This document shows positions 1-16,766 of a stretch of DNA of 17,278 nucleotides, piece by piece. Position numbers and translations under genes: made by a program. Source of the stretch: a virus (taxonomy: Duplodnaviria > Heunggongvirae > Uroviricota > Caudoviricetes); IMG/VR virus record IMGVR_UViG_2711768073_000019; one strand, 5' to 3'. Position 1 is the stretch's first letter, and every line of letters starts with the position of its first letter. The notes beneath the pieces are model-generated. The model saw only the letters and a program-made list of their open reading frames with translations, searched no databases and had not been told where the DNA came from.

Positions 1-549
1 ATGCAATTTAATATCCCTACGTTGCTTACACTGTTCCGTGTCATCCTTATCCCATTCTTTGTATTGGTCTTTTATCTGCCTGTCACCTGGTCGCCGTTTG
101 CCGCCGCGCTCATTTTCTGCGTCGCGGCGGTGACTGACTGGTTCGATGGTTTTCTGGCACGCCGCTGGAACCAGAGTACCCGGTTTGGTGCTTTCCTTGA
201 CCCTGTGGCAGATAAAGTTCTCGTGGCTATCGCCATGGTGCTGGTAACCGAGCATTATCACAGCTGGTGGGTGACATTACCGGCGGCAACGATGATCGCC
301 CGTGAAATTATTATTTCTGCGCTACGCGAATGGATGGCGGAGTTGGGTAAACGCAGTAGCGTGGCCGTCTCCTGGATTGGGAAAGTGAAAACCACTGCCC
401 AGATGGTGGCGTTGGCATGGCTGCTGTGGCGTCCGAACATTTGGGTTGAGTACGCCGGTATTGCACTTTTCTTTGTGGCTGCGGTACTGACTCTGTGGTC
501 AATGTTGCAATATTTGAGCGCTGCGCGTGCAGATTTGCTTGATCAGTGA
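1..549 (+). CDS. pgsA: CDP-diacylglycerol--glycerol-3-phosphate 3-phosphatidyltransferase (phosphatidylglycerophosphate synthase), 182 aa, complete
   Basis: ATG at 1, TGA at 547-549. Multi-pass membrane protein with the CDP-alcohol phosphatidyltransferase motif (DWFDGFLAR...[10 protein letters not shown]). Matches E. coli PgsA from memory. Conserved synteny with the downstream glyW-cysT-leuZ tRNAs. Confidence 0.96.
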
Positions 550-599
550 TCGTTTCGGCGTAATTTTCAGCAAACGATCAAAAGTGGTGAAAAATATCG

Positions 600-627
600 T
601 TGACTCATCGCGCCAGGTAAGTAGAAT
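600..627 (+). promoter_or_regulatory. Putative sigma70 promoter of the glyW-cysT-leuZ tRNA operon (-35 TTGACT 600-605, 16-bp spacer, -10 TAGAAT 622-627)
   Basis: Near-consensus hexamers read directly. AT-rich UP-like tract upstream (aaaagtggtgaaaaatatcg), GC-rich discriminator downstream, about 75 bp before tRNA-Gly. Not experimentally anchored. Confidence 0.5.
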
Positions 628-700
628 GCAACGCATCGAACGGCGGCACTGATTGCCAGACGATAATAAAATCAAGTGATTAACTGATTGCTTGATGAAT

Positions 701-776
<76 letters not shown>

Positions 777-830
777 GTTTAAAAGACATCGGCGTCAAGC
801 GGATGTCTGGCTGAAAGGCCTGAAGAATTT

Positions 831-904
831 GGCGCGTTAACAAAGCGGTTATGTAGCGGATTGCAAATCCGTCTAGTCCGGTTCGACTCCGGAACGCGCC
901 TCCA
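831..904 (+). tRNA. cysT: tRNA-Cys (anticodon GCA), 74 nt with encoded CCA
   Basis: GGCGCGTTAACAAAGCGGTTATGTAGCGGATTGCAAATCCG...GCGCCTCCA. Acceptor stem ggcgcgt/acgcgcc, anticodon loop ttGCAaa. Confidence 0.96.
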
Positions 905-916
905 CTTTCTTCCCGA

Positions 917-1003
917 GCCCGGATGGTGGAATCGGTAGACACAAGGGATTTAAAATCCCTCGGCGTTCGCGCTGTGCGGGTTCAAGTCCCGCTCCGGGTA
1001 CCA
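917..1003 (+). tRNA. leuZ: tRNA-Leu (anticodon UAA), 87 nt class II tRNA with long variable arm and encoded CCA
   Basis: GCCCGGATGGTGGAATCGGTAGACACAAGGGATTTAAAATCCC...GGTTCAAGTCCCGCTCCGGGTACCA. Anticodon loop ttTAAaa, long variable arm. Confidence 0.96.
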
Positions 1004-1046
1004 TGGGAAAGATAAGAATAAAATCAAAGCAATAAGCAGTGTCGTG

Positions 1047-1069
1047 AAACCACCTTCGGGTGGTTTTTT
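1047..1069 (+). terminator. Rho-independent terminator of the tRNA operon
   Basis: Hairpin aaaccacc-ttcg-ggtggttt followed by T-run (1064-1069). Confidence 0.85.
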
Positions 1070-1541
1070 CGTATTTGTATTTTGTGCAATGGCGGTAGAG
1101 TGGCGATGGTGTGGCGATATGCAGAAACAATGGTAGTGCACGTGCTGTTTAAACTCTAAGGATGAAGCAGAATTCTTCTGCAGCTCCTCCGTATTTCGCA
1201 TAGTGAACCAGGACCTCTGTTAAACAAAAATTTTTCTGGGATTTTTTCACTCGACTTCATTTTTCCTCCTGCAATCCACCAACAGGTACCTGCGCTAATC
1301 TATCTTTTTAATCTGACAACATCTTGGGAAAAGGCAAATTCGTCAGATTTACTGTTTTTCTGCTGCCTCGAATGCCGATGTCTGAAGCACTGATAAGAGT
1401 TCTATCTCTTTGATATAGATCTTTTTTTTGATGAATTGCACGACATATTATCGTTATGACACCTTCTTGTTAAAGGTATTGTACTCCTCATCTCGATTTT
1501 ATGATGTGGGCTATGATTGGTTAGTAATAGAGTGTATCGGT

Positions 1542-1823
1542 ATGCGATGTGGTTTATTAATGGCAATCTGCCTTTGTTTAGTATCTTTTAGTGGATATGC
1601 AGCAACAGGAAAGTCTGATGCTCAGATCAAAAAAGAAATAATTAAAGAATCCATTGAATCTTATCCAGGCAATTGTGCGTGTCCTTATAATCATGCAAGG
1701 AATGGTAGTAGATGTGGTGGACGCAGTGCATATAGCCGTAATGGAGGGTATGACGTGGTATGTTATGAGGGTGATGTTACCGATGAAATGATCCGGCAAT
1801 GGAAGCAGGAGAATGCTGAGTAA
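1542..1823 (+). CDS. Small secreted Cys-rich hypothetical protein (93 aa from ATG 1542; the track ORF starts upstream at 1428)
   Basis: N-terminal hydrophobic signal-peptide-like segment MRCGLLMAICLCLVSFSGYAATG. Mature part has 4 Cys (NCACPYNHARNGSRCGG...VVCYEG). Lies in a roughly 38 percent GC region just past the tRNA terminator. No recognised family; weak RBS. Confidence 0.4.
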   Translation: MRCGLLMAICLCLVSFSGYAATGKSDAQIKKEIIKESIESYPGNCACPYNHARNGSRCGGRSAYSRNGGYDVVCYEGDVTDEMIRQWKQENAE

Positions 1824-1895
1824 TCTCTTTTAACAGGTTTGTTGTGCGAGCATTATGTGCCGTTAACGGTACACTAGCTAGTGATTGTTCCAAAA

Positions 1896-1932
1896 AGAAA
1901 ACCCGCAGTTCTTACGCTGCGGGTTTGTTGTT
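1896..1932. terminator. Bidirectional intrinsic terminator hairpin
   Basis: aaacccgcag-ttcttacg-ctgcgggttt, a perfect 10-bp stem flanked by A-run on one side and T-rich tract on the other. It sits 3' of the minus-strand hok-like gene and 3' of the plus-strand small ORF. Confidence 0.7.
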
Positions 1933-2011
1933 CATGTCTGTGAGATAGGGTGCCACTTCAGCCAACCTTAGCAACCGATTGACGGGGGATTGCTCCCCCG
2001 TCGCGGTTTCC

Positions 2012-2152
2012 TTACTGCTTACACTGTAAGAACGCCGCAAACTCCGCTCCCCAGAAGCTCATCCGTATTTCACACAGCGAACCGTGTAGCATCCAGATGA
2101 TGAGGATTACCGTCACGCAGAACGTGATGGCTGTAAGCGATTTTTGCGACAT
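2012..2152 (-). CDS. Hok/Gef-family type I toxin, 46 aa (not in the supplied ORF track because it is under 60 aa)
   Basis: Manual translation of the minus strand: MSQKSLTAITFCVTVILIIWMLHGSLCEIRMSFWGAEFAAFLQCKQ. Single N-terminal TM helix followed by the Hok signature SLCEIR and an EFAAF(L) tail (compare Hok KSLCEIR...EVAAFMAYE). RBS aaaGGAGcaagcgctATG. Followed 3' by a perfect stem-loop gacggggg-attgct-cccccgtc (1981-2002), then the terminator. Confidence 0.8.
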   Translation of the reverse strand: MSQKSLTAITFCVTVILIIWMLHGSLCEIRMSFWGAEFAAFLQCKQ

Positions 2153-2342
2153 AGCGCTTGCTCCTTTGTTGGAGAGGCGCTAACCTATCACTTGCTTAAG
2201 GTAGATATGTTAGGGCCTCGGTTAAACAGAAATGTTTTCCGGGGCCTTTCCACATCCGGCCTTCGGGTATTCCTCCGACCATCAGCCGAAAGGCACCCGC
2301 GGGTAATCTATCGTTTTTTTGTTACTCCGGCAATTCTGCCTG

Positions 2343-2603
2343 TTAATTCTGAGGTAAAGGCAAACTCATCTGATTGTTTCCCCTGTGTGAAGCTGGCAGC
2401 TCATGCCACGGGATACCTTCCGAAGAGTGAACGCCGGAGGCGTGTTTTGATGTGAATTTATGGAAAGCTTCCAGTGTTGAGAAGCATACGCCGCATTCCA
2501 GGTTGTTACACTGGTAATACTTTTGCCGCACAGTGTTTGAATCGTTTTCCGGACGACTGGTGCGGATTCGGGCAGATGCGCCACAAAGCGGACAACGGAA
2601 CAT
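2343..2603 (-). CDS. ogr: Ogr/Delta-family zinc-finger late-gene transcriptional activator (P2-like), 86 aa
   Basis: MFRCPLCGASARIRTSRPENDSNTVRQKYYQCNNLECGVCF aligns with P2 Ogr MFHCPLCQHAAHARTSRY...ERYHQCQNVNCSATF, including the four Cys ligands (C4, C7, C32, C37). Strong RBS aaGGGAGGtcgctATG. The C-terminus is longer than the P2 Ogr as recalled (72 aa). Confidence 0.8.
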   Translation of the reverse strand: MFRCPLCGASARIRTSRPENDSNTVRQKYYQCNNLECGVCFSTLEAFHKFTSKHASGVHSSEGIPWHELPASHRGNNQMSLPLPQN

Positions 2604-2892
2604 AGCGACCTCCCTTAACGTGGTGCTGCCGCTATTCTAAGTTGTAATAGCTCAGACTCCAACTGACAGTTTGCGCAGCCAGAATACAATCAAACCTAGC
2701 GGTACGCTTTGTGCGAAGAGCGGAAGTTCGCAACTCCAACAACTTTGATAACCTCCGCATAAATGGAAATCGGTTGCTTACATAAGTTTATTGGCTGAGG
2801 TGCATATCGGGAAGCAAGCGGGCAGTGCCATCTTATCTGTTACAATCCCGAAATGATTGTTCAGCCCGCTTTTTCTAACAGCATGTAAACAT

Positions 2893-4032
2893 TCAGCTGC
2901 AAATTTCGTTGTTGCTGCATGTTATCTCTTCAAGTGCAGCGGCGTTATAATCAACGGAATGATCAACCTGTGATGTAGGTCTGCCAAAAAATTCAACCCC
3001 TGACATAATCATGTTGCCGATATTCTCTCGCTGTTTATCACTGAGCCTGTCCCACCACTCAGGGGATGAATATGTATTTTCGGCCTTTGTGAAGAAAAAA
3101 TACAGAAGGGTATTGAACATCCTGTTAGCTGGGATCTTAATTAGTGTCCGTATAAAACGTCTGATAATTGTTGAAGTTCTCAGCCAACTGAACACTACAT
3201 ATCCCTTACCTCCGCAGGAAAAAGCATTGAAACATACTTGTTCCGCCGACACTGTAAGATCGCTCAAATCCTGAATTTTGGTCCCATCGAAATCCCTCTC
3301 CGGTGAAAGAATTGACGAAACTACAATTGGTAAAGGCTCTGCAAAAGTGAAGATAACACTTTCAATTTCTGAAAATTGCCTGCTAAGTAGGATGCGGTCG
3401 AGGCTAGTTTTAAGATTATTTAATTCAATTATTGCTGCATTTAAGCCACTTTGGTGCTGGTCGATTAATTTCTGAATATAATACTGTTCAACTTGTAGCT
3501 TTCCTTTATCGGCATTTTTAGCAAAATCAGAAGATAGCACTCCCCCTTCTTTGGCATAAATTTCTTTAGACAATGAACGAAACATTAAGGCAAAGCACTG
3601 CTCGTCCGTGCCTGTAAATTTTTCGTTCTCTAGGCATGAAAATAAGATTCTGTCATGAACTGCACAAAATCCTGTAAAAGTGGATGCCTGATTGATACCG
3701 ATCTTCTCGGGAAGCCATTTTCCGTTGTTTCTCATCAGGCTTGCTAAGTTCATTATCACCCCCATGACGTGATTGCTGGAGTCGGCGATCGCCTTAAGGC
3801 TACTGCTCTTAGATATCGTATGCGCCTGAACGATGCGTTTATCACAATCTTCGTGCATGGATGCTGGCGCATAACATGCCTTTCTCTGCGAGAGAGACTT
3901 TGAAAATTTCAGTGCCTCGGCTTTGGATACCGGAGTTTCACGATCTCGACCAAGATGGCACTTTTTATACTTAAGTCCTGAATTACACCAGCACTTATCA
4001 TTTCTTCCTAATTTCACTTTATTGTTTCCCAC
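2893..4032 (-). CDS. Hypothetical cargo protein, 379 aa, with N-terminal SEC-C-type zinc-ribbon motif; unknown function
   Basis: Long uninterrupted minus-strand ORF in an AT-rich block between gpD and ogr. Residues 9-26 GRNDKCWCNSGLKYKKCH match the SEC-C metal-binding motif. The rest resembles no family I recognise. The annotated start is GTG without a clear SD; an alternative GTG at 4017 follows GGGAAA. Confidence 0.6.
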   Translation of the reverse strand: MGNNKVKLGRNDKCWCNSGLKYKKCHLGRDRETPVSKAEALKFSKSLSQRKACYAPASMHEDCDKRIVQAHTISKSSSLKAIADSSNHVMGVIMNLASLMRNNGKWLPEKIGINQASTFTGFCAVHDRILFSCLENEKFTGTDEQCFALMFRSLSKEIYAKEGGVLSSDFAKNADKGKLQVEQYYIQKLIDQHQSGLNAAIIELNNLKTSLDRILLSRQFSEIESVIFTFAEPLPIVVSSILSPERDFDGTKIQDLSDLTVSAEQVCFNAFSCGGKGYVVFSWLRTSTIIRRFIRTLIKIPANRMFNTLLYFFFTKAENTYSSPEWWDRLSDKQRENIGNMIMSGVEFFGRPTSQVDHSVDYNAAALEEITCSNNEICS

Positions 4033-4431
4033 GAAATTAATGTTCTATAACAAAAACACTTATCGAAAATAGGTGTAATTTATCACTCCGGCAGCTAAAA
4101 GATCATCTGCCACATGCACGATAATAAATCTTCCTTGCGTCATCATCTCCCTCTGTTCTTAAATCAGGTGTTGCCTGTGTGCGGAGGATTCGCGAAGTAC
4201 AGTAGCCGAAATGCATGATCTTACCCATCAATGGTGAGCACGCGATAATAAGTGAGTCCCTAATTGACCACTCATGGCAATACAACTTCAACCAGCATTC
4301 ATGACCACTATCCGTGGATTAACTGTTACATAAGCAACACCTGCTCTAGGCACAAAGCGGGCTGCCAGATTGGGTCTGGCACTGTGCTGTGAGTGTGTCA
4401 GTTCTGGTTTGAGTCAATACATCTAATTTGC

Positions 4432-5532
4432 TCATTCTGTTTCTGCTATCCATTCCGGGATTTTTGCTTCAAGCTCAAGCTGTGTGGTAAAGCCGCTGTT
4501 ATCAATGGTGTGCTCGGCTTTTGCAATAATCCAGTCCTGATTATCGATGTCACTTTTGAAGCCTGTCACCGTGCCATGCATTTCGGGATAGAGTTCTGCG
4601 CGTCCACGCGCCAGCGTGATGGAGAATGATGCGGCTCCGCGTTGTAGCTGCTGCCACTTTGCCGCCGCTGCACGTCTTGCTGCCTGCTCGTTCTGATAAG
4701 TCTTGCGTAACACAAACACGTTGCCTTCCGCACCTTCCATATAGTCACCTTCACGGCTGCTGCTTTTCTCCTTTTTCGGTTTGCGGCGTTTCACGCTGAC
4801 TTTTTTCTTTTTCCCGTAATTAAGATCAAGCCAGTAAGCACGTACCCCCGTATACGCTTCGCGGTCAGCAATGCGGAACTGATGGCGATCGCCACTGCTG
4901 CGCGTGATGGCGAACGATGGCAACGGCTGGCCCTGTGCGTTCACGCCACCGCCTGGCATGATGAATAACAGATTACTGCTTTTTACCGTAGTGATTGCGC
5001 CCAGCATTTCCGCCATGCGCGTAAGGAAGGACATGTCGCTTTCTTCGGTCTGGTCGGCGTGGTCGATTTCAATATCCATCAGCATTTCGCTGATTTGTGG
5101 TTTCAGACCGTACCGATGAGCGATGGCGGATACCACGCGCTCAACGGTCACATCATGCCAGGACACCTCACGTTTAACGTTAAATTCATCCCGAAAATCT
5201 GCGCTTCTGGCTGAAACAGTCAGCCTGTCCGGCGGTCCTTCGTGAGCGATTTCATCAACAATGTAAGTGCCTTTTTCTGTCAGCGGTTCTCCTTTCCAGC
5301 CAATGAGAACCGTCAGGTGCGCGCCCCGTGGCGGTAGCTGCAACTGACCATCTGCATCATCCAGCATGATGGTGAGCTGGTCCGCCTCAAATCCCCGGTT
5401 GTCGGTCAGTGACAGGCTCATCAGGCGCTCTGCCACGCCGGACAGTGTTTCCCCCTCCGCGAGAATATCAAAATCCGGCATTTTCACGGGGTCTGTGCTC
5501 TGACTGAGCAATTGCATGGTGGTATCGGTCAT
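4432..5532 (-). CDS. D: P2-like tail protein D (Phage_GPD / late control gene D family), copy 1, 366 aa
   Basis: RBS AGGGAGGgaacagATG at 5532 (track ORF 4432-5664 has 44 junk N-terminal codons running into IS2). Typical gpD motifs: SLSLTDNRGFEADQLTIMLDDADGQL, VSWHDVTVERVVSAIAHRYGLKP, K/R-rich internal linker. Ends ...EWIAETE. Confidence 0.9.
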   Translation of the reverse strand: MTDTTMQLLSQSTDPVKMPDFDILAEGETLSGVAERLMSLSLTDNRGFEADQLTIMLDDADGQLQLPPRGAHLTVLIGWKGEPLTEKGTYIVDEIAHEGPPDRLTVSARSADFRDEFNVKREVSWHDVTVERVVSAIAHRYGLKPQISEMLMDIEIDHADQTEESDMSFLTRMAEMLGAITTVKSSNLLFIMPGGGVNAQGQPLPSFAITRSSGDRHQFRIADREAYTGVRAYWLDLNYGKKKKVSVKRRKPKKEKSSSREGDYMEGAEGNVFVLRKTYQNEQAARRAAAAKWQQLQRGAASFSITLARGRAELYPEMHGTVTGFKSDIDNQDWIIAKAEHTIDNSGFTTQLELEAKIPEWIAETE

Positions 5533-5648
5533 CTGTTCCCTCCCTGTGCGGCATGGTCGCATGTGCGTGCATAGGGGGTTACTGCTTTTTGTTGTCGCCG
5601 TGGCGGGAGAACGGCGCAGGGGTGAGATTACGCGNCCTGGATTTGCCC

Positions 5649-6554
5649 CTATATTTCCAGACACCTGTTATCACTTACCCCATCACTGGCCCACTGCCGC
5701 AGATATTCCCGTGGCGAGCGATAACCCAGCGCACTATGCGGATGCCATTCGTTATAATGCTCGAACGCCTCTGCAAGGTTCTTTGCTGCCGTTAACCCGT
5801 CTGGTTTGGGCATGATACTTATGTAGTCACGCTTTATCGTTTTCACGAAGCTCTCTGCTATTCCGTTACTCTCCGGACTCCGCACTGCCGTGTTCTTCGG
5901 TTCAAGTCCCAACATCCTGGCGAACTGACGTGTTTCATTCGCCCGGTAGCATGAACCATTATCCGTCAGCCACTCCACTGGAGACGCCGGAAGCTCGCTG
6001 CCAAAGCGGCGTTCCACTGCTCCCAGCATGACGTCCTGTACTGTTTCACTGTCGAAGCCACCCGTTGTGACCGCCCAGTGCAGTGCCTCACGGTCACAGC
6101 AGTCCAGCGCGAACGTGACCCGCAGTTTTTCTCCGTTATCACAGCGGAACTCAAACCCGTCAGAGCACCATCGCTGATTACTTTCTTTCACAGCCACTCT
6201 GCCGGTATGTGCCCGTTTCGATGGCGGTACAGCGGGTTTTCGCTCAAGCAACAGCGCATTCTGGCGCATGATCCGGTAAACACGTTTGGCATTGATCGCA
6301 GGCATACCATCAAGTTCTGTTTGTCTGCGAAGCAGCGCCCATACCCGACGATAACCATATGTGGGTAGCTCTCCGATAACATGGTGTATACGGCGAAGCA
6401 CATCCGTATCATCCGTGTGACGGCTGCGGCGGCCGTCCTTCCAGTCATCGGCTCGTCTGAGAATGACGTGCAACTGCGCACGCGACACCCGGAGACAACG
6501 GCTGACGAAGCTTACTCCCCATCCCCGGGCAATAAGGGCGCGTGCGCTATCCAC
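5649..6554 (-). CDS. insD: IS2 transposase OrfB (InsD, DDE integrase domain), 301 aa; expressed as OrfAB fusion by -1 frameshift
   Basis: [34 protein letters not shown]... is IS3-family OrfB with an rve integrase core. Overlaps insC in the -1 frame. Confidence 0.93.
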
Positions 6555-6877
6555 TTTTTTGCTCGCCCATATTCAACGGCTTCTTTAAGGAGTTCATTTT
6601 CCATCGTTTTTTTGCCGAGCAGACGCTGGAGTTCTTTAATCTGCTTCATGGCGGCAGCAAGTTCAGAGGCAGGAACGACCTGTTCTCCGGCAGCCACAGC
6701 AGTAAGACTTCCCTCCTGGTATTGCTTACGCCAGAGAAATAGCTGGCTGGCTGCCACACCATGTTGCCGGGCAACAAGGGAGACCGTCATTCCCGGTTCA
6801 AAGCTCTGCTGAACGATAGCGATCTTTTCCTGTGTAGTACGCCGTCTGCGTTTCTCCGGCCCTAAGACATCAATCAT
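6512..6877 (-). CDS. insC: IS2 transposase OrfA (InsC), 121 aa
   Basis: [40 protein letters not shown]... is identical in character to IS2 InsC. Start set at ATG 6877 (GGAGAACAGATG), not the upstream track start. Confidence 0.93.
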
Positions 6878-6968
6878 CTGTTCTCCAATGACTAGTCTAA
6901 AAACTAGTATTAAGACTATCACTTATTTAAGTGATATTGGTTGTCTGGAGATTCAGGGGGCCAGTCTA

Positions 6969-8019
6969 CGACCTAAATCCTGAGCTCATCCCCGATATTA
7001 TTTCGGCTATTAAAAAACTATCAACGCCACCTTACAAAATAGAGATACAGGGTGGGGAGCCTCTCTTGCGGTTTGATTTAATTCAGAGCATCTATGATCA
7101 ATGTGCTGAAACGCTGGGAAGAACCAATTTTGAGATGGTGGTGGCATCAAGTCTGTCTGTCTTGAATGAGGATATGATTGAATGGTCGAGAGACCGGAAC
7201 ATAACGTTCTCTGTGTCGCTTGATGGTGAGGAAGTTGTTCACAACAGTAATCGAATTCTTGGTCGTGGGCTTGCGTATAGTAGAACAGTGTCAGGGGTAG
7301 AGGCTATCAAACACTCTTTAGGTGCTGGCCGCGTTGCAACGGTTACTACAGTTACTAAAGAGCTTATCAGACGTCCTGAATCGATTGTTCAGGCTCACTT
7401 GTCTCTTGGTCTCAAGGACATGTTTATCCGACCTGTTAGTCCCTATGGGTTTGCACAAAAAGCTTCTTTCACCTTTTCTATGGACGAATACTTCAGCTTC
7501 TATGCCTCGTTGATAGATGAAATCCTTAAGATTAATAATGAAGGGATAAGGGTTGTGGAACATTCGGCCTCCATTCATCTGAAAAGGATCTTCAATCCCG
7601 GTTTTAGTGGTTATGCGGATTTAAAGTCTCCAAGTGGAGTCGTGCTTAACAGTATTCTTTTCAATTATGACGGTCGAGTATATGGTAGCGATGAGAGCCG
7701 TATGTTGCAGAAGGTGAATCCTGAAACGGAGTTCAGTGCGGGTGAAGTTAAGACGCTATCATTTTCTGATAGTCCTTACTATAACGCAGTATTGAGTTCA
7801 TCGTTCAATTTTGCTCTGCCAGGTTGTGATACATGTGCATATCAACCATTTTGTGGTTCAGATCCATGCCAGAACATAAGTGTACAGGGTGAGCCTGTCG
7901 GTGATAGGAGTCGTTCAACGTTTTGTCAATATCACAAGGGGATGTTCAGGTATCTGATGAACTGCATCTCAGAGGGTGGTTCGAAGGCTGAGATGCTAAA
8001 AGGATGGGCATATGTCTGA
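6969..8019 (+). pseudogene. 5'-truncated radical SAM / SPASM-domain enzyme (HxsB-like maturase), interrupted by IS2
   Basis: Reading frame continues out of the IS2 end. Retained sequence begins just before the SAM-binding GGEPLL motif but lacks the upstream CxxxCxxC triad, so roughly 60-100 N-terminal residues are missing. C-terminal Cys-rich auxiliary-cluster motif ALPGCDTCAYQPFCGSDPC. Low GC. The B versus C assignment is tentative. Confidence 0.65.
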
Positions 8020-9124
8020 GGTTATCAGGAACGATATCTTTCATTTTGCTTCTACAGAGAACGTGCCCACGGGGTTCTATCGGTTATGCAAACAAAAACC
8101 AGTGAACCCTTTATTCTTTTTGCCCAATTTGCTAGTAGTTGCTGAAGGCAATAATGATGCCATTCCACCATGCTTTGATTTCTCTGTTATTAGCACTGAA
8201 TTATTTGAGTCAATTGAAGATGGAGATATTGGGATAATCAACAATGGCAATATGATACGCGTTATTCTGTCACGCAAAGCCAATCATAATACTGTCTTAG
8301 TTACGGAACGCTGCAATAACTTGTGTCTGTTTTGTTCGCAGCCACCAAAGAAAATAAATGATGACTGGCTACTTACCCAATCAGCTCTTGCTATAGCTTC
8401 ATTTGGCTTGAACGGAGTTGTTGGGGTCAGCGGTGGTGAACCTTTGCTATATGGGGATGACTTCCTTCACTTCATTGATTTTATCATCGAGAATTCACCA
8501 GATACTGCTTTACATGTTTTAACAAACGGACGCAAATTTGCTGATATCAACTTTACACAGGAAATGGCAAAGCGAAGCAAAAAGATCAAAATCACCTTTG
8601 GTATCCCGCTCTACTCATCAAGACCACTTGTGCATGATCATCTGGTAGGGAGTGATGGCGCATTTAATGAAACGGTTAAAGGGTTAATCAATGCAGGAAA
8701 CTTGGGGATTAATATCGAACTTAGAGTTATTCCTACACTGGCTAACTATACCGAATTGGATGATATTGTAGAATTCGCTGGCCGTGTGTTCTCCAACATC
8801 AATCAGATTTCCCTTATGGGGTTGGAGCCTATCGGTTGGGCACGAAAAAACTGGTCCACCATCTTCATTGATCACAGTAGTTATAGTGAGAAAATAATCT
8901 CTGCCATAGACGCTGCATACAGGTCAGGCATACCTCTGACAATTTTTAATTATCCTTTGTGTTATCTTCCTGAAAGGGCTAGGGAGCTTGCTGTTCAGTC
9001 GATCTCTGATTGGAAAAATTACTATCCAAAAGAATGTGATGAATGTACTCAGAAGCCTTCCTGTGCTGGCTATTTCAGTTCCTCAAAAGGCCGTTTTCAT
9101 CAATCACCGAGACCAATTTTATGA
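8012..9124 (+). CDS. Radical SAM enzyme (HxsC-like maturase), 370 aa
   Basis: CxxxCxxC motif ERCNNLCLFCSQP at about residues 99-111, GGEPLLY SAM-binding motif, C-terminal Cys cluster ECDECTQKPSC. Start overlaps the upstream stop (ATGtcTGA), indicating translational coupling. Low GC. Confidence 0.75.
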   Translation: MSEVIRNDIFHFASTENVPTGFYRLCKQKPVNPLFFLPNLLVVAEGNNDAIPPCFDFSVISTELFESIEDGDIGIINNGNMIRVILSRKANHNTVLVTERCNNLCLFCSQPPKKINDDWLLTQSALAIASFGLNGVVGVSGGEPLLYGDDFLHFIDFIIENSPDTALHVLTNGRKFADINFTQEMAKRSKKIKITFGIPLYSSRPLVHDHLVGSDGAFNETVKGLINAGNLGINIELRVIPTLANYTELDDIVEFAGRVFSNINQISLMGLEPIGWARKNWSTIFIDHSSYSEKIISAIDAAYRSGIPLTIFNYPLCYLPERARELAVQSISDWKNYYPKECDECTQKPSCAGYFSSSKGRFHQSPRPIL

Positions 9125-9756
9125 AAAAGTTTAATTTTGCTGCTCTACTTCCGGGATTTTTGGCTCTCAACAATTCTGTATGGGCAAGCGATTCATCTAC
9201 AGGAGCGAGTGATTTACCTGGTATGACTCTTAATGAGCATGATTTAGTGATAGCTCCACTTAACACGGAAGTCCCATTTTATATCGCAGGGCATCGAAGC
9301 CATAGCTCTCATAGGAGCCATAGCTCTCATAGATCCTCATCAGGTGGTGGATACTATGGTGGAAGTACCCCCTATTATCCAAAAACATACAGCTCACCAA
9401 GTTCATCTGGTTCTTCAAGTTCAGGTGCAAGTTCCTCATCGTCCTCTTCCTCGGTGCGTGCACTTCGTTCTAACGATAATAATAGAACCACTAACACGAG
9501 TTCTGTTGGAACTTCAGAGGTTAACCGTACGAGTAATGGGCTTGCTTCTGATGCAGAGAAACGTAAGCGATTGATTATGCGAGTTCAGTTCGCATTGCTG
9601 GACAGGGGATTTTATAACGGAAATATTGACGGCATAATGGGGCCATCCACAAGGCTGTCTGTGAAAAATTACCGCATTGCGAATGGATTACCGATTCCTG
9701 CAACTGAAACACTCGACACTCAATTGTTAAATTCTTTGAATATATTAGCTCGCTAA
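9121..9756 (+). CDS. hxsA: His-Xaa-Ser repeat precursor-like protein with signal peptide and C-terminal peptidoglycan-binding-like domain (HxsA-like), 211 aa
   Basis: ATGA overlap with the preceding rSAM gene. Signal peptide MKKFNFAALLPGFLALNNSVWA; (H-R-S)(H-S-S)(H-R-S)(H-S-S)(H-R-S) repeats; Ser/Gly low-complexity linker; C-terminal LLDRGFYNGNIDGIMGPSTRLSVKNYRIANGLP resembles a PG_binding_1 fold. Matches my recollection of the TIGRFAM His-Xaa-Ser system description. Confidence 0.65.
   Translation: MKKFNFAALLPGFLALNNSVWASDSSTGASDLPGMTLNEHDLVIAPLNTEVPFYIAGHRSHSSHRSHSSHRSSSGGGYYGGSTPYYPKTYSSPSSSGSSSSGASSSSSSSSVRALRSNDNNRTTNTSSVGTSEVNRTSNGLASDAEKRKRLIMRVQFALLDRGFYNGNIDGIMGPSTRLSVKNYRIANGLPIPATETLDTQLLNSLNILAR
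9298..9333 (+). repeat. 2 x 18-bp near-perfect tandem direct repeat inside hxsA encoding the HSSHRS repeats
   Basis: agccatagctctcatagg (9298-9315) and agccatagctctcataga (9316-9333), 17/18 identical. Confidence 0.85.
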
Positions 9757-9920
9757 ATCTCAGTGAGGTATAAATAAAAAGCAATAAATTATATTAGTCG
9801 CGCGTCCATTATTAGTGGGTAAGATCAAGGACCGTCTGCTCTGTGTTAGGGGCAGATGGTCAGATAAGACTGTGCCGTTTAGCCCGCTAGTACGTGTCTG
9901 GACTAATACATTTAAGAGTC

Positions 9921-11024
9921 TCATTCTGCTATCCATTCCGGGATTTTTGCCTCAAGCTCAAGCTGCGTGGTAAAGCCGCTGTTATCAATGGTGTGCTCGG
10001 CTTTCGCAATAATCCAGTCCTGATTATCAATCTCGCTTTTAAAGCCTGTTACCGTGCCATGCATTTCGGGGTAGAGTTCTGCGCGTCCACGTGCCAGTGT
10101 GATGGAGAACGCTGCGGCTCCGCGTTGTAGCTGCTGCCACTTTGCCGCCGCTGCGCGTCTTGCTGCCTGCTCGTTCTGATAAGTCTTGCGTAACACAAAC
10201 ACATTGCCTTCCGCGCCTTCCATATAATCACCTTCACGGCTGCTGCTTTTCTCCTTTTTGGGTTTTGGCGGTTTACGGCGTTTCACGCTGACTTTTTTCT
10301 TTTTCCCGTAATTAAGATCAAGCCAGTAGGCGCGTACCCCCGTATACGCCTCGCGGTCAGCAATACGGAACTGATGGCGATCGCCGCTGCTGCGTGTAAT
10401 GGCGAACGAGGGCAACGGCTGGCCCTGTGCGTTCACGCCACCACCTGGCATGATGAATAACAGATTGCCGCTTTTTACTGTGGTGATTGCGCCCAGCATT
10501 TCCGCCATGCGCGTAAGGAAGGACATGTCGCTTTCTTCGGTCTGGTCGGCGTGGTCGATTTCGATATCCATCAGCATTTCGCTGATTTGCGGTTTCAGAC
10601 CGTACCGATGAGCGATGGCGGATACCACACGCTCAACGGTCACATCATGCCAGGACACCTCACGTTTAACGTTAAATTCATCCCGAAAATCTGCGCTTCT
10701 GGCTGAAACAGTCAGCCTGTCCGGCGGTCCTTCGTGTGCAATTTCATCAACAATGTAAGTGCCTTTTTCTGTCAGCGGTTCTCCTTTCCAGCCAATGAGA
10801 ACCGTCAGGTGCGCGCCCCGTGGCGGTAGCTGCAACTGACCATCTGCATCATCCAGCATGATGGTGAGCTGGTCCGCCTCAAATCCCCGGTTGTCGGTCA
10901 GTGACAGGCTCATCAGGCGCTCTGCCACGCCTGACAGCGTTTTACCCTCCGCGAGAATATCAAAATCCGGCATTTTCACGGGGTCTGTGCCCTGACTGAG
11001 CAATTGCATGGTGGTGTCGGTCAT
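9921..11024 (-). CDS. D: P2-like tail protein D, copy 2 (diverged allele), 367 aa
   Basis: Same family and RBS as copy 1 but distinct sequence: SQGTDP vs SQSTDP, AEGKTLSG vs AEGETLSG, KRRKPPKPKKEK vs KRRKPKKEK, ends ...EWIAE without the TE. The 3' flank differs completely from copy 1. Confidence 0.9.
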   Translation of the reverse strand: MTDTTMQLLSQGTDPVKMPDFDILAEGKTLSGVAERLMSLSLTDNRGFEADQLTIMLDDADGQLQLPPRGAHLTVLIGWKGEPLTEKGTYIVDEIAHEGPPDRLTVSARSADFRDEFNVKREVSWHDVTVERVVSAIAHRYGLKPQISEMLMDIEIDHADQTEESDMSFLTRMAEMLGAITTVKSGNLLFIMPGGGVNAQGQPLPSFAITRSSGDRHQFRIADREAYTGVRAYWLDLNYGKKKKVSVKRRKPPKPKKEKSSSREGDYMEGAEGNVFVLRKTYQNEQAARRAAAAKWQQLQRGAAAFSITLARGRAELYPEMHGTVTGFKSEIDNQDWIIAKAEHTIDNSGFTTQLELEAKIPEWIAE

Positions 11025-11181
11025 CTGTTCCCTCCCTGTGCGGCATGGTCGCATGTGCGTGCGGAGGGGGTTACTGCTTTTTGTTGTCGCCGGGTCGGGA
11101 GAACGGCGCAGGGGTGAGATTACGCGCGTGGTGGGTGATGATTGTTGCCGAATCATTTAACGGATACAAGGGGCTGAAGCT

Positions 11182-12348
11182 ATGAGTGAAACTCGTTTTC
11201 ATGGTGCCCGTGTTACGGAAAATACCGACCTGGTAACAGCGATTAACGATGTTGATTCCAGCGTTATCGGTATCGTGGCAACGGCGGATGATGCGGACGC
11301 GAAGCTGTTCCCGCTGAACAAGCCCACACTGCTGACCCGCGTCAATGACGTGCTGGGAAAATGCGGGACAACGGGGACGCTTTATCGTGCGCTTAAGGCC
11401 ATTGCAGACCAGGTGAGCACAAAGGTGATCGTCGTTCGCGTGGCTGAACACAAAGAAGAAGACGGAAAGACGCAGGATCAACTGGTTATCGGTGGTTCTG
11501 AATCTGACGGCAGCTATACGGGGATGTATGCGCTGCTTGTTGCAGAGCAGGATGAAAGCATCGGATACCGTCCGCGTATTCTGGCCGCGCCGGAGCTGGA
11601 CACGGAGGCGGTAACAAAATCCCTGTGCGTGATTGCGGGTAAACTGCGCGCGTTTGTGTATGCCTCATGTCACGGCTGTAACACGATGGCTGAGGCGATT
11701 ACCTACCGCCAGAAATTCAACGAACGTGAGGTGATGCTCTTATGGCCGGACTTCATCGCCTACAACCCGAAAAGTGGCAAAAACGAAACGTTCCCCGCGC
11801 CTGCCTATGCGTGTGGCCTTCGTGCGTACATTGACCATGAGCAGGGATGGCACAAATCACTGTCCAACGTTCCGGTTAAAAATGTGCTGGGGATGTCGAG
11901 GCATGTGTTCTGGTCGTTGCAGGCCGAAGACAGCGATGCCAACAGCCTCAACAACAAAGAAATCACGACCATTATTCGTCGCAACGGGTTCCGCTTCTGG
12001 GGCAACCGCACACCGGAAACGAACGCCTACATCTTTGAGGTGTATACCCGAACCGCACAGGTGCTGGCTGATTCAATTGCAGAAGCGCAGTTTGAAACCA
12101 TCGACAGTCCACTGACGCCTGCGAACGTGAAGGATGTTATCAGTGCCATCAGGGCAAAACTGGATTCACTGGTTACTGCCGGGAAACTGATTGGCGCGGA
12201 GTGCTGGTATGACGTGGTGGATAACAGCACCACGGATTTACGTCAGGGACGTGTGCGTATTCGCTACAAATATACGCCCGTTCCGCCACTGGAAGACATG
12301 GAGCTTTACCAGACGTTTACTGATGAATACTTTGAACCCGCATTTGCG
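11182..12348 (+). CDS. FI: P2-like tail sheath protein FI, 3' end cut by an ambiguous base (last 5 codons missing)
   Basis: MSETRFHGARV...WPDFIAYNP...GFRFWGNRT...YKYTPVPPLEDMELYQTFTDEYFEPAFA shows conserved sheath motifs as in P2 gpFI. Frame is broken at n 12349, where the sequence jumps into the antisense interior of gpD. Confidence 0.88.
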
Positions 12349-12349
12349 N

Positions 12350-12998
12350 GGCGATCGCCACTGCTGCGCGTGATGGCGAACGATGGCAACGGCTGGCCCT
12401 GTGCGTTCACGCCACCGCCTGGCATGATGAATAACAGATTACTGCTTTTTACCGTAGTGATTGCGCCCAGCATTTCCGCCATGCGCGTAAGGAAGGACAT
12501 GTCGCTTTCTTCGGTCTGGTCGGCGTGGTCGATTTCAATATCCATCAGCATTTCGCTGATTTGTGGTTTCAGACCGTACCGATGAGCGATGGCGGATACC
12601 ACACGCTCAACGGTCACATCATGCCAGGACACCTCACGTTTAACGTTAAATTCATCCCGAAAATCTGCGCTTCTGGCTGAAACAGTCAGCCTGTCCGGCG
12701 GTCCTTCGTGAGCGATTTCATCAACAATGTAAGTGCCTTTTTCTGTCAGCGGTTCTCCTTTCCAGCCAATGAGAACCGTCAGGTGCGCGCCCCGTGGCGG
12801 TAGCTGCAACTGACCATCTGCATCATCCAGCATGATGGTGAGCTGGTCCGCCTCAAATCCCCGGTTGTCGGTCAGTGACAGGCTCATCAGGCGCTCTGCC
12901 ACGCCGGACAGTGTTTCCCCCTCCGCGAGAATATCAAAATCCGGCATTTTCACGGGGTCTGTGCTCTGACTGAGCAATTGCATGGTGGTATCGGTCAT
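12350..12998 (-). pseudogene. gpD fragment (N-terminal about 216 codons, copy-1-type allele)
   Basis: Identical in character to 4885-5532. Bounded by n at 12349. Confidence 0.7.
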
Positions 12999-13155
12999 CT
13001 GTTCCCTCCCTGTGCGGCATGGTCGCATGTGCGTGCATAGGGGGTTACTGCTTTTTGTTGTCGCCGTGGCGGGAGAACGGCGCAGGGGTGAGATTACGCG
13101 CGTGGTGGGTGATGATTGTTGCCGAATCATTTAACGGATACAAGGGGCTGAAGCT

Positions 13156-13897
13156 ATGAGTGAAACTCGTTTTCATGGTGCCCGTGTTACGGAAAGTACC
13201 GACCTGGTAACAGCGATTAATGATGTTGATTCCAGTGTTATCGGTATCGTGGCAACGGCGGATGATGCGGACGCGGAGCTGTTCCCGCTGAACAAGCCCA
13301 CACTGCTGACCCGCGTCAATGACGTGCTGGGAAAATGCGGGACTACGGGGACGCTTTATCGTGCGCTTAAGGCTATTGCAGACCAGGTGAGCACAAAAGT
13401 GATCGTCGTTCGCGTGGCTGAACACAAAGAAGAAGGCGGTAAGACGCAGGATCAACTGGTTATCGGTGGTTCTGAATCTGACGGCAGCTATACGGGGATG
13501 TATGCGCTGCTTGTTGCAGAGCAGGATGAAAGCATCGGATACCGTCCGCGTATTCTGGCCGCGCCGGAGCTGGACACGGAGGCGGTGACAAAATCCCTGT
13601 GCGTGATTGCGGGTAAACTGCGCGCGTTTGTGTATGCCTCATGTCATGACTGTAACACGATGGCTGAGGCAATTACCTACCGCCAGAAATTCAACGAACG
13701 TGAGGTGATGCTCTTATGGCCGGACTTCATCGCCTACAACCCGAAAAGTGGCAAAAACGAAACGTTCCCCGCGCCTGCCTATGCGTGCGGCCTTCGTGCG
13801 TACATTGACCATGAGCAGGGCTGGCACAAATCGCTGTCCAACGTTCCTGTTAAAAATGTGCTGGGGATGTCCAGGCATGTTTTCTGGTCGTTGCAGG
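13156..13897 (+). pseudogene. FI fragment (N-terminal about 247 codons, variant allele: ESTDLV, ADAELF, EEGGKTQ, SCHDCNT)
   Basis: Runs into the N-run at 13898-13908. Confidence 0.7.
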
Positions 13898-13908
13898 NNN
13901 NNNNNNNN
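13898..13908. other. Assembly gap (11 N)
   Basis: Run of n. Sequence after the gap restarts at the gpD start region (tcggtcatctgttccctccc). Confidence 0.99.
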
Positions 13909-14073
13909 TCGGTCATCTGTTCCCTCCCTGTGCGGCATGGTCGCATGTGCGTGCGGAGGGGGTTACTGCTTTTTGTTGTCGCCGGGTCGGGAGAACGGCG
14001 CAGGGGTGAGATTACGCGCGTGGTGGGTGATGATTGTTGCCGAATCATTTAACGGATACAAGGGGCTGAAGCT

Positions 14074-14779
14074 ATGAGTGAAACTCGTTTTCATGGTGCC
14101 CGTGTTACGGAAAATACCGACCTGGTAACAGCGATTAACGATGTTGATTCCAGCGTTATCGGTATCGTGGCAACGGCGGATGATGCGGACGCGAAGCTGT
14201 TCCCGCTGAACAAGCCCACACTGCTGACCCGCGTCAATGACGTGCTGGGAAAATGCGGGACAACGGGGACGCTTTATCGTGCGCTTAAGGCCATTGCAGA
14301 CCAGGTGAGCACAAAGGTGATCGTCGTTCGCGTGGCTGAACACAAAGAAGAAGACGGAAAGACGCAGGATCAACTGGTTATCGGTGGTTCTGAATCTGAC
14401 GGCAGCTATACGGGGATGTATGCGCTGCTTGTTGCAGAGCAGGATGAAAGCATCGGATACCGTCCGCGTATTCTGGCCGCGCCGGAGCTGGACACGGAGG
14501 CGGTGACAAAATCCCTGTGCGTGATTGCGGGTAAACTGCGCGCGTTTGTGTATGCCTCATGTCATGACTGTAACACGATGGCTGAGGCAATTACCTACCG
14601 CCAGAAATTCAACGAACGTGAGGTGATGCTCTTATGGCCGGACTTCATCGCCTACAACCCGAAAAGTGGCAAAAACGAAACGTTCCCCGCGCCTGCCTAT
14701 GCGTGCGGCCTTCGTGCGTACATTGACCATGAGCAGGGCTGGCACAAATCGCTGTCCAACGTTCCTGTTAAAAATGTGC
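14074..14779 (+). pseudogene. FI fragment (N-terminal about 235 codons, mosaic allele: ENTDLV and AKLF but SCHDCNT)
   Basis: Runs into the N-run at 14780-14816. Confidence 0.7.
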
Positions 14780-14816
14780 NNNNNNNNNNNNNNNNNNNNN
14801 NNNNNNNNNNNNNNNN
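14780..14816. other. Assembly gap (37 N)
   Basis: Run of n. Sequence resumes inside FI at about codon 77. Confidence 0.99.
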
Positions 14817-15772
14817 AGGTGAGCACAAAGGTGATCGTCGTTCGCGTGGCTGAACACAAAGAAGAAGACGGAAAGACGCAGGATCAACTGGTTATCGGTG
14901 GTTCTGAATCTGACGGCAGCTATACGGGGATGTATGCGCTGCTTGTTGCAGAGCAGGATGAAAGCATCGGATACCGTCCGCGTATTCTGGCCGCGCCGGA
15001 GCTGGACACGGAGGCGGTAACAAAATCCCTGTGCGTGATTGCGGGTAAACTGCGCGCGTTTGTGTATGCCTCATGTCACGGCTGTAACACGATGGCTGAG
15101 GCGATTACCTACCGCCAGAAATTCAACGAACGTGAGGTGATGCTCTTATGGCCGGACTTCATCGCCTACAACCCGAAAAGTGGCAAAAACGAAACGTTCC
15201 CCGCGCCTGCCTATGCGTGCGGCCTTCGTGCGTACATTGACCATGAGCAGGGCTGGCACAAATCGCTGTCCAACGTTCCTGTTAAAAATGTGCTGGGGAT
15301 GTCCAGGCATGTTTTCTGGTCGTTGCAGGCCGAAGACAGTGATGCCAACAGCCTCAACAACAAAGAAATCACGACCATTATTCGTCGCAACGGGTTCCGC
15401 TTCTGGGGCAACCGCACACCGGAAACGAACGCCTACATCTTTGAGGTGTATACCCGAACCGCACAGGTGCTGGCTGATTCAATTGCGGAAGCGCAGTTTG
15501 AAACCATCGACAGTCCACTGACGCCTGCGAACGTGAAGGATGTTATCAGTGCCATCAGGGCAAAACTGGATTCGCTGGTTACTGCCGGGAAACTGATTGG
15601 CGCGGAGTGCTGGTATGACGTGGTGGATAACAGCACCACGGATTTACGTCAGGGGCGTGTGCGTATTCGCTACAAATATACGCCCGTTCCGCCACTGGAA
15701 GACATGGAGCTTTACCAGACGTTTACTGATGAATACTTTGAACCCGCATTTGCGGTGCTGGGAGGTGCCTGA
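14817..15772 (+). pseudogene. FI fragment (C-terminal about 318 codons to native stop)
   Basis: Ends ...EPAFAVLGGA-TGA at 15770-15772. Followed by tggctgt, then n at 15780. Confidence 0.7.
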
Positions 15773-15780
15773 TGGCTGTN

Positions 15781-16766
15781 TTTATCGTGCGCTTAAGGCC
15801 ATTGCAGACCAGGTGAGCACAAAGGTGATCGTCGTTCGCGTGGCTGAACACAAAGAAGAAGACGGAAAGACGCAGGATCAACTGGTTATCGGTGGTTCTG
15901 AATCTGACGGCAGCTATACGGGGATGTATGCGCTGCTTGTTGCAGAGCAGGATGAAAGCATCGGATACCGTCCGCGTATTCTGGCCGCGCCGGAGCTGGA
16001 CACGGAGGCGGTAACAAAATCCCTGTGCGTGATTGCGGGTAAACTGCGCGCGTTTGTGTATGCCTCATGTCACGGCTGTAACACGATGGCTGAGGCGATT
16101 ACCTACCGCCAGAAATTCAACGAACGTGAGGTGATGCTCTTATGGCCGGACTTCATCGCCTACAACCCGAAAAGTGGCAAAAACGAAACGTTCCCCGCGC
16201 CTGCCTATGCGTGTGGCCTTCGTGCGTACATTGACCATGAGCAGGGATGGCACAAATCACTGTCCAACGTTCCGGTTAAAAATGTGCTGGGGATGTCGAG
16301 GCATGTGTTCTGGTCGTTGCAGGCCGAAGACAGCGATGCCAACAGCCTCAACAACAAAGAAATCACGACCATTATTCGTCGCAACGGGTTCCGCTTCTGG
16401 GGCAACCGCACACCGGAAACGAACGCCTACATCTTTGAGGTGTATACCCGAACCGCACAGGTGCTGGCTGATTCAATTGCAGAAGCGCAGTTTGAAACCA
16501 TCGACAGTCCACTGACGCCTGCGAACGTGAAGGATGTTATCAGTGCCATCAGGGCAAAACTGGATTCACTGGTTACTGCCGGGAAACTGATTGGCGCGGA
16601 GTGCTGGTATGACGTGGTGGATAACAGCACCACGGATTTACGTCAGGGACGTGTGCGTATTCGCTACAAATATACGCCCGTTCCGCCACTGGAAGACATG
16701 GAGCTTTACCAGACGTTTACTGATGAATACTTTGAACCCGCATTTGCGGTGCTGGGAGGTGCCTGA
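15781..16766 (+). pseudogene. FI fragment (C-terminal, from about codon 67, to native stop)
   Basis: Begins LYRALKAIADQ... directly after n 15780. Stop TGA at 16764-16766 overlaps the FII ATG. Confidence 0.7.

Follow-up and report, generated by a model that had tools for sequence, protein, structure and literature searches.

A serial pile-up of tail sheath gene pieces as a probable scaffolding artefact of two near-identical P88-like prophages in an E. coli draft genome

The window analysed here is the whole 17,278-nucleotide stretch of viral DNA in IMG/VR record IMGVR_UViG_2711768073_000019, in which pieces of the tail sheath gene FI occur five times in succession and gpD recurs as well. This arrangement raises the question of whether the locus is a genuine array, a collapsed set of repeats or a product of assembly. 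The genes themselves form a P2-like (Peduoviridae, P88-like) prophage tail module, as judged by nucleotide similarity and gene order shared with P88 and by Pfam domains, all called above curated cut-offs, for sheath (PF04984, PF22671, PF17482), tube (PF04985), gpD (PF05954) and Ogr (PF04606). Capsid, integrase and replication genes of a complete prophage fall outside the window. The gpD-FI junction is present in approximately 1115 of 5426 complete E. coli genomes, and both P88 and the four complete-genome loci that were fetched contain gpD and FI once each.

A character scan located all non-ACGT positions of the window at 5635, 12349, 13898-13908, 14780-14816 and 15780. These five N positions divide the window into six contigs, C1 to C6, with the following features (A and B designate the two haplotypes described below).

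1-5634: contig C1, leuZ-side end of prophage B, with pgsA, tRNA-Gly/Cys/Leu, hok, ogr, SEC-C/YecA-like cargo, gpD(B) and 102 bp of the sequence between gpD and FI; collinear over 5634 bp (99.82%) with the O103 RM8385 leuZ prophage
2343-2603, minus strand: ogr, in C1 (Pfam Ogr_Delta)
2893-4032, minus strand: SEC-C/YecA-like cargo gene, in C1 (Pfam SEC-C)
4432-5532, minus strand: full gpD, haplotype B, in C1 (Pfam Phage_GPD)
5635: single-N join of the prophage B intergenic region to 'CC' and an IS2 end
5638-6968, minus strand: IS2, 1331 bp, in C2; terminal inverted repeats and flanks read; rve and HTH_21 domains
6969-9756, plus strand: truncated hxsB (to 8019), hxsC (8012-9124) and hxsA (9121-9756), in C2; Radical_SAM and PG_binding_1 domains
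9921-11024, minus strand: full gpD, haplotype A, 367 aa, in C2 (Pfam Phage_GPD)
11182-12348, plus strand: FI piece 1, nt 1-1167 of 1185, haplotype A, end of C2 (Phage_sheath_1, Gp18_domIII_N, Phage_sheath_1C)
12349: single-N join of C2 and C3; FI codon 389 on the left, gpD interior on the opposite strand on the right
12350-13897: contig C3, haplotype B, wholly inside the span that C2 already covers
12350-12998, minus strand: gpD nt 1-649, in C3
12999-13155: gpD-FI intergenic region, in C3
13156-13897, plus strand: FI piece 2, nt 1-742, in C3
13898-13908: scaffold gap of 11 N between C3 and C4
13909-14779: contig C4, A-to-B chimera; 8 nt of gpD, intergenic region, FI piece 3
14074-14779: FI piece 3, nt 1-706, in C4
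14780-14816: scaffold gap of 37 N between C4 and C5
14817-15779, plus strand: contig C5, A-to-B chimera; FI piece 4 and the first 8 nt of FII
14817-15772, plus strand: FI piece 4, nt 230-1185, stop at 15772, in C5
15780: single-N join of C5 and C6
15781-17278, plus strand: contig C6, haplotype A; FI piece 5 and FII; 99.93% to strain B2
15781-16766, plus strand: FI piece 5, nt 200-1185, stop at 16766, in C6
16766-17278, plus strand: FII tail tube gene, in C6 (Phage_tube)

The three tRNAs in C1 were the sole matches of the window in an Rfam scan, and no promoter or terminator was found when the gpD-FI intergenic region was scanned.

All five breaks in collinearity with complete genomes fall on the N positions, one to one. 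Inside the contigs, collinearity with complete genomes is kept throughout, the IS2 insertion within C2 excepted. Every junction between duplicated pieces is thus an N, with none readable in continuous sequence, as is expected of a scaffolding artefact. A first-pass annotation of 11182-16766 had placed the four N sites from 12349 to 15780 exactly where they lie, and the five FI pieces with different internal ends that it described are borne out by their coordinates. The ORFs of 467, 368 and 389 aa that it called chimeras each run through N into another frame or strand context. Of the two gpD pieces it reported, one is present in C3, but the second (from 13909) holds just 8 nt of gpD coding sequence and the gpD-FI intergenic region; its greater apparent length comes only from running the ORF upstream past the annotated start, MTDTT. 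Misjoins do lie within the stretch that it flagged, but the damage begins earlier, at 5635, where there is a further misjoin; two full-length gpD genes also lie upstream of 11182.

Forty-seven sites vary among the window's own contigs, and a third allele was observed at none of them (0/47); the variant table likewise contains zero variants outside haplotypes A and B. Haplotype B is contiguous in C1 with pgsA, the three tRNA genes, hok, ogr and the SEC-C gene, and represents a P88-like prophage located at tRNA-Leu (leuZ). In C2 (99.93% to strain B2), haplotype A is contiguous with hxsB, hxsC and hxsA, and represents a second P88-like prophage, carrying the hxs antiphage operon. The gpD-FI regions of the two prophages are approximately 97% identical, and the full copies of gpD(A) and gpD(B) share 95.4% identity. 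In complete genomes prophage A adjoins ihfA. Both prophages occur on the chromosome of O26:H11 str. 11368, where they share one orientation and lie at 2.70 and 2.40 Mb (~297 kb apart).

These findings suggest, with a probability that we place at roughly 0.88, that the region is a scaffolding artefact of two near-identical P88-like (P2-family) prophages in one E. coli draft genome. The same layout artefact might instead have been produced from a mixed culture or contaminated library in which two strains contributed one prophage each. The window is unable to show that A and B share a cell, and the leuZ-hxs scaffold join at 5635 could arise from such a sample too. However, because their chromosomal contexts differ (leuZ versus hxs cargo), A and B are not alternative alleles of one locus. 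Moreover, the genomes O26:H11 11368, UTAK-12, 00_3305 and 2010C_3902 appear in the match lists of both prophage contexts, and the non-prophage part of C1 is free of variation, though a contig consensus would hide it. Two contributing strains are thus improbable in our estimation. The mixed population raised by the first-pass annotation is unnecessary for explaining the data, although it has some small probability, and the two prophages probably reside in one cell.

Overlaps among the contigs reveal how the two prophages can be rebuilt. C2 ends in 968 bp that recur with 100% identity at the start of C6, the true continuation of C2. The end of C1 overlaps C3 by 751 bp with 1 mismatch (99.87%), and C3 is 97.3% identical to C2 versus 99.6% to the O103 leuZ prophage. 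Both C3 and C4 are contained in the span of C2. Joining C2 to C6 yields an intact FI(A) that is one synonymous base away from the FI of strain B2, and joining C3 to the B-part of C5 yields an FI(B) that matches the FI of the O103 RM8385 leuZ prophage at 1185/1185 nt. The biallelic sites and the rebuilt FI(A) and FI(B) reduce the differences among copies to two source sequences. The real content is one gpD-FI-FII per prophage, with path A running C2 to C6 and path B running C1 to C3 to the 3' part of C5.

The first-pass annotation had proposed at least three FI haplotypes, and the amino-acid signatures that it quoted (ENTDLV/AKLF/EEDGKTQ/SCHGCNT, ESTDLV/AELF/EEGGKTQ/SCHDCNT and a mosaic) agree with the translations. 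The mosaic is real, and four distinct DNA sequences occur over reference positions (ref) 11411-11887, but these come down to two parental haplotypes and two chimeras with one switch each. In C4, 13 sites up to ref 11466 carry haplotype A and 8 sites from ref 11613 carry haplotype B, whereas in C5, 7 sites up to ref 11697 carry A and 10 sites from ref 11814 carry B. Each contig therefore has one A-to-B switch, at different positions. Both switches fall in variant-free runs; of 28 such runs, that of C4 (146 bp) ties for the longest and that of C5 (116 bp) ranks fifth. What was taken for a third haplotype is a chimera made by the assembler, not a third copy. A third copy of the type inserted near flk (L003) was considered separately and rejected, as its private variants are absent from every contig of the window.

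Among the 5426 complete E. coli genomes, no natural allele was found for C4 (best match 99.3%) or C5 (best match 99.4%). As a control, the pure-B contig C3 also has an imperfect best match (99.6%), which makes the missing C4 and C5 matches only moderately discriminating; five of its six mismatches are common to the long anchored contig C1. Because this control weakens the natural-allele search, the nucleotide-perfect rebuild of FI(B) is the stronger argument. At ref 10629, C3 also has an isolated A allele, which the two-haplotype model does not predict.

Genuine recombination could also give A/B mosaics. If three or four real copies existed, C4 and C5 might be recombinants formed by gene conversion, either fixed or in subpopulations, with the serial layout still an artefact. 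Some E. coli genomes have up to 4 places matching the module, a third insertion site exists near flk in O111:H11, and recombination between 97%-identical prophages is plausible. Nevertheless, C4 and C5 carry neither private variants nor flk-type markers (for example at ref 11298, 11367, 11403 and 11469), and the differences between the two at ref 11613-11697 mean that the genome would require two additional copies. The lack of a matching natural allele for either contig in the complete genomes also counts against real copies, and both switches occur in long variant-free runs, as short-read mis-phasing predicts. We therefore consider recombinant copies highly unlikely. An equally doubtful version holds that C4 and C5 are real FI alleles created by ongoing gene conversion between resident P88-like prophages, with subpopulations that differ in crossover point being assembled separately.

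The term 'collapsed', used in the first-pass annotation, does not fit this region, where the copies are laid out redundantly and over-represented. There are 4557 FI-derived bases for a 1185-bp gene, or ~3.8 gene equivalents where two genes are expected. A collapsed repeat would have fewer copies than the genome and a merged consensus, but here the haplotypes stay phased except at the C4 and C5 switches. A true collapse into a per-site mixed consensus was rejected, given one switch each among 21 (C4) and 17 (C5) sites; by our own count, the probability of at most one switch in 21 random binary sites is ~2e-5. FII-U of prophage B may have been collapsed elsewhere in the assembly, outside the window.

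The contig ends are also informative. Seven of nine stop short of the following A/B variant by exactly 1 or 11 bp, versus a maximum count of 5 in 200,000 trials of random placement; the two that depart from this rule are those of C1 (96 bp) and C2 (26 bp). Neither the gap sizes nor the 1/11-bp offsets identified the assembler. A fixed offset between contig end and variant site offers a handy reads-free diagnostic for such artefacts.

These boundaries also bear on whether the patchwork could be real, with partial FI and gpD segments amplified and rearranged locally in the chromosome into an array whose Ns are small unsequenced gaps. Such an array is asserted by the deposited scaffold, and IS2 is close by. 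However, the piece boundaries are irregular and track A/B variant sites, no junction can be read through, and C2 and C6 are identical across their overlap. Nothing alike is present in P88, strain B2, O103 RM8385, O111:H11 88-19539 or O26:H11 11368. With regular units, readable junctions and reproduction in relatives all lacking, a real array is scarcely credible, and the five-piece FI pile-up is no biological feature.

The scaffolding artefact can be accounted for by a simple series of events, which we infer from the contig structure, alleles, overlaps, rebuilt genes and contig-end positions. The sequenced E. coli would carry prophage B at leuZ and prophage A with an IS2-interrupted hxs operon. 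Identical runs of 116-146 bp were too long for short reads to phase the variants on either side, so the assembler would have broken contigs at A/B variant sites, and twice it may have changed haplotype inside a long identical run, giving C4 and C5. The scaffolder would then have held several contigs, all from one ~2.5-kb interval, and presumably strung them serially with placeholder gaps of 1, 11, 37 and 1 N, neither merging nor separating them. At 5635 it would also have linked the leuZ and hxs contigs. The core reading of the first-pass annotation, that near-identical P2-like prophages were left unresolved, that this is not a tandem array and that gene order is unreliable, is upheld.

The sequence around 5635 is consistent with such a link. 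The gpD(B)-IS2-hxsB junction is covered by no complete E. coli genome, although the IS2 part alone has matches, and C3 (haplotype B) spans the equivalent position without IS2. The element is inserted in hxsB of prophage A and is 99.4-99.8% identical to listed IS2 copies; the 'CC' that precedes it matches the last two bases of CGACC, the expected 5-bp target duplication. The window lacks hxsD and the 5' part of hxsB, and the rest is collinear with hxsDBCA of strain B2. HXS is an antiphage system, and 77% of hxs operons are reported to lie outside predicted prophages (PMC13128918). A conflict between that report and a prophage-borne operon was considered and rejected, in that hxsA adjoins gpD in 27 genomes versus 91 that carry hxsC.

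Read literally, the scaffold would give rise to spurious tail-sheath paralogues, truncated pseudogenes, three chimeric ORFs, an apparent tandem amplification and a false link between the leuZ and hxs prophages, whose loci are well separated in O26:H11 11368. No gene count, synteny, prophage boundary or variant call between 5635 and at least 16766 should be kept; the reconstructed paths A and B can take their place. The importance of these findings is limited to data quality.

Among known systems, Escherichia phage P88 (Peduoviridae, Xuanwuvirus) is 98.1% identical to the gpD-FI segment of the window over 2425 bp. It shares the layout, with hok and gpD on one strand and FI, FII, E, E', T and U divergent on the other. 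In P88 no gene is annotated between hok and gpD, whereas the window prophages have the SEC-C protein or hxs between ogr and gpD. P88 and the complete prophages inspected have one gpD and one FI each, in contrast to the four gpD and five FI pieces made by the scaffold. In the P2 tail operon, FI-FII-E-E'-T-U-D, D follows U on the same strand. The window encodes the same protein families as P2 (sheath, tube, gpD hub and Ogr activator), but the FI-U block is divergent from D in the P88 group, a lineage feature unrelated to the artefact. The closest parallel to the artefact itself is provided by false segmental duplications, in which haplotypes that were assembled separately end up next to each other on one scaffold (Kelley and Salzberg 2010, PMC2864568; Ko et al. 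2022, PMC9516828). As in those cases, near-identical contigs that are contained (C3 and C4 in C2) or overlapping (C6 with C2; C5) are adjacent with gaps, and only source-copy variants differ, creating an illusory duplication and false gene fragments. Unlike those cases, the 'haplotypes' of the window are paralogous prophages at separate loci of a haploid bacterium rather than diploid homologues, and two of the redundant contigs are A/B chimeras besides.

The patchwork of FI (tail sheath) and gpD (hub) gene fragments in the window is no biological feature. Only five positions or runs carry anything other than A, C, G or T, namely a single N at 5635, 12349 and 15780, 11 N at 13898–13908 and 37 N at 14780–14816; all but the N at 5635 were already placed there by the first-pass annotation. 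Cutting at these points yields six contigs, and self-comparison of the window reveals that the interval at the 3' end of contig C2 is covered again by each of C3, C4, C5 and C6.

Contigs of the window and, for C3 through C6, their placement on C2 coordinates (ref)
1–5634, C1
5636–12348, C2
12350–13897, C3; ref 10376–11923, 97.3% identity
13909–14779, C4; ref 11017–11887, 99.1% identity
14817–15779, C5; from ref 11411, 98.9% identity
15781–17278, C6; from ref 11381, 100% identity over 968 bp

In the same self-comparison, the end of C1 (4884–5634) agrees with the first 751 bp of C3 at all but one position. Pfam assignments identify the tail sheath (PF04984, PF22671 and PF17482), the tail tube encoded by FII (PF04985), Ogr (PF04606) and two full gpD hub genes (PF05954, at 9921–11024 and 4432–5532), along with a SEC-C protein, two radical-SAM proteins and the IS2 transposase. 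Re-reading the window also recovers the five FI pieces reported earlier. Of the two gpD pieces described with them, the second comprises merely 8 nt of gpD, counted from the annotated start, plus intergenic DNA.

The window contigs differ from one another at 47 sites, none of which shows more than two alleles. Haplotype A is carried by C2 and C6, and haplotype B by C1 and C3. C4 and C5 are mosaics: in C4, a series of 13 A sites ends at ref 11466 and eight B sites begin at ref 11613, and in C5, seven A sites end at ref 11697 and 10 B sites begin at ref 11814. When C2 and C6 are joined, they yield an intact FI of 394 codons that encodes the same protein as the FI of strain B2 and differs from that gene by one synonymous nucleotide. 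C3 together with the B part of C5 reconstitutes an FI that agrees with that of the O103 leuZ prophage at 1185 of 1185 nucleotides. The two reconstructed paths run through hxsA, gpD(A), FI(A) and FII (path A) and from leuZ to gpD(B) and FI(B) (path B). A third prophage type, found at the flk locus of O111:H11, was considered and rejected, its private variants being absent from every window contig.

Both haplotypes have a source in complete genomes. All 5634 bp of C1 are collinear with the O103 RM8385 chromosome (99.82%), where the order is pgsA, tRNA-Gly/Cys/Leu, hok, ogr, the YecA/SEC-C protein gene and gpD, followed by a single FI and FII. From 6967 on, C2 is collinear with strain B2 (99.93%), where the order is ihfA, hok, ogr, hxsDBCA, gpD, FI and FII. 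The O26:H11 strain 11368 carries both prophages on one chromosome in the same orientation, with the leuZ/SEC-C/gpD copy at 2.70 Mb and the ihfA/hxs/gpD copy at 2.40 Mb, and the hit lists contain several more complete genomes that match both contexts. Two P88-like prophages per cell are therefore ordinary, and haplotypes A and B likely resided in the same cell.

The contig ends track the A/B variants. The distance outward from a contig end to the next variant is 11 bp for five ends (both ends of C3, the end of C4, and the starts of C5 and C6) and 1 bp for two others (the start of C4 and the end of C5); the ends of C2 (26 bp) and C1 (96 bp) depart from these offsets. In 200,000 random placements of the nine ends, at most five matched two fixed distances, and a binomial estimate for the observed pattern is ~2e-8, or ~1e-5 when the post-hoc choice of both distances is allowed for. 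The breaks therefore came from disagreement between reads of two copies, which is direct evidence that the reads included both haplotypes and that a fixed rule governed where the assembler stopped.

C4 and C5 are best read as assembler chimeras. Each contains exactly one A/B switch, located inside a variant-free run of 146 bp or 116 bp, respectively, and these two rank joint first and fifth in length among the interval's 28 inter-variant runs. That the two contigs are instead real recombinants is unlikely, because they are discordant at ref 11613–11697 and, as real alleles, would demand two more copies. Moreover, none of ~1500 places in 5426 complete genomes matches C4 or C5 above 99.3–99.4%, although this test is only moderately discriminating, given that the pure-B contig C3 itself tops out at 99.6%; five of the six mismatches of C3 are common to the long, anchored contig C1. 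The amino-acid strings that earlier distinguished the FI pieces were confirmed, and the 467-, 368- and 389-aa ORFs are indeed chimeras. The proposal of at least three FI haplotypes was correct in recognizing a mosaic type, but the set reduces to two parental haplotypes and two chimeras, with no extra copies.

Two local departures from the haplotypes were observed. At window position 12603 (ref 10629), C3, elsewhere pure B, has the A base where C1 has the B base; mixed reads probably produced an erroneous consensus base here, which the two-path model does not account for. At 5318–5386 in C1, the equivalent of window 10810–10878, gpD(B) carries A bases at five successive variable sites, unlike the B-type gpD of O103 RM8385. 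C1 and C3 concur on these five bases, which may reflect ordinary allelic variation or a short patch of natural gene conversion between the two prophages.

A further misjoin, at 5635, belongs to the same scaffolding problem. Here a single N links intergenic DNA between gpD(B) and FI of the leuZ prophage to 'CC' and IS2, a junction absent from all complete E. coli genomes searched, and C3 crosses the same haplotype-B position without IS2. The 'CC' is compatible with CGACC, the target duplication expected at the insertion site in hxsB. The damage begins at 5635, upstream of the stretch previously given as 11182–16766.

The complete IS2 (1331 bp, 5638–6968) interrupts hxsB of prophage A. No complete E. 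coli genome of the collection has the IS2/hxsB junction, and the insertion therefore looks strain-specific. Recent work has established hxsDBCA as an antiphage system that stops phage DNA entry (PMC13128918). The system of this strain is probably inactive, as IS2 truncates hxsB and the window lacks both hxsD and the 5' part of that gene. The operon lies as cargo between ogr and gpD of the P88-like prophage (window 6969–9756; 10560–13957 and 3560–6957 in the related prophage loci L001 and L004). Among 5426 complete genomes, hxsC is present in 91; hxsA adjoins gpD in 27 genomes. These counts are broadly consistent with the report that 77% of hxs operons lie outside predicted prophages (PMC13128918). 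Between ogr and gpD, the leuZ copy (window 2604–4431) encodes a 379-aa SEC-C/YecA-like protein and the ihfA copy (window 6969–9920) has hxsDBCA, whereas the O111:H11 copy at the flk locus has essentially nothing there (7462–7505 of locus L003). This slot looks like a variable cargo site of P88-like prophages. The att-proximal end of prophage B carries a hok/gef-family toxin gene (2012–2152, minus strand), and one is annotated in every related prophage compared (L001–L005); Rfam yielded no antisense Sok-like RNA at the gathering threshold.

Several contigs would have reached the scaffolder all linked to one ~2.5-kb interval. It may then have failed to recognise their overlaps and lined them up by approximate midpoint, inserting gaps that were minimal or estimated to be small. 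A single-N placeholder is the output of several scaffolders for zero or negative gap estimates. The earlier suspicion of unresolved, near-identical prophages is upheld, but the copies were redundantly expanded rather than collapsed.

Among phages, Escherichia phage P88 (Peduoviridae, Xuanwuvirus) is the closest, with 98.1% identity across gpD-FI. P88 has one copy each of gpD and FI, divergently arranged, with FII, E, E', T and U after FI; the divergent gpD/FI junction, present in ~1115 of 5426 complete E. coli genomes, is therefore normal. A 157-bp intergenic region separates gpD from the divergently transcribed FI-FII-E-E'-T-U (window 9921–11181 onward; P88, locus L005). In P2, genes FI through U, D and ogr follow in that order on a single strand. 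The divergence in the P88 group therefore means that gpD needs a promoter of its own. A sigma-70 consensus scan of the gpD-FI intergenic region found no promoter, as expected if the promoters rely on an activator. Diploid assemblies are known to contain false segmental duplications, including 'contained' and 'overlapping' duplicate contigs (PMC2864568; PMC9516828), and the arrangement described here can be likened to these as a bacterial counterpart driven by paralogues.
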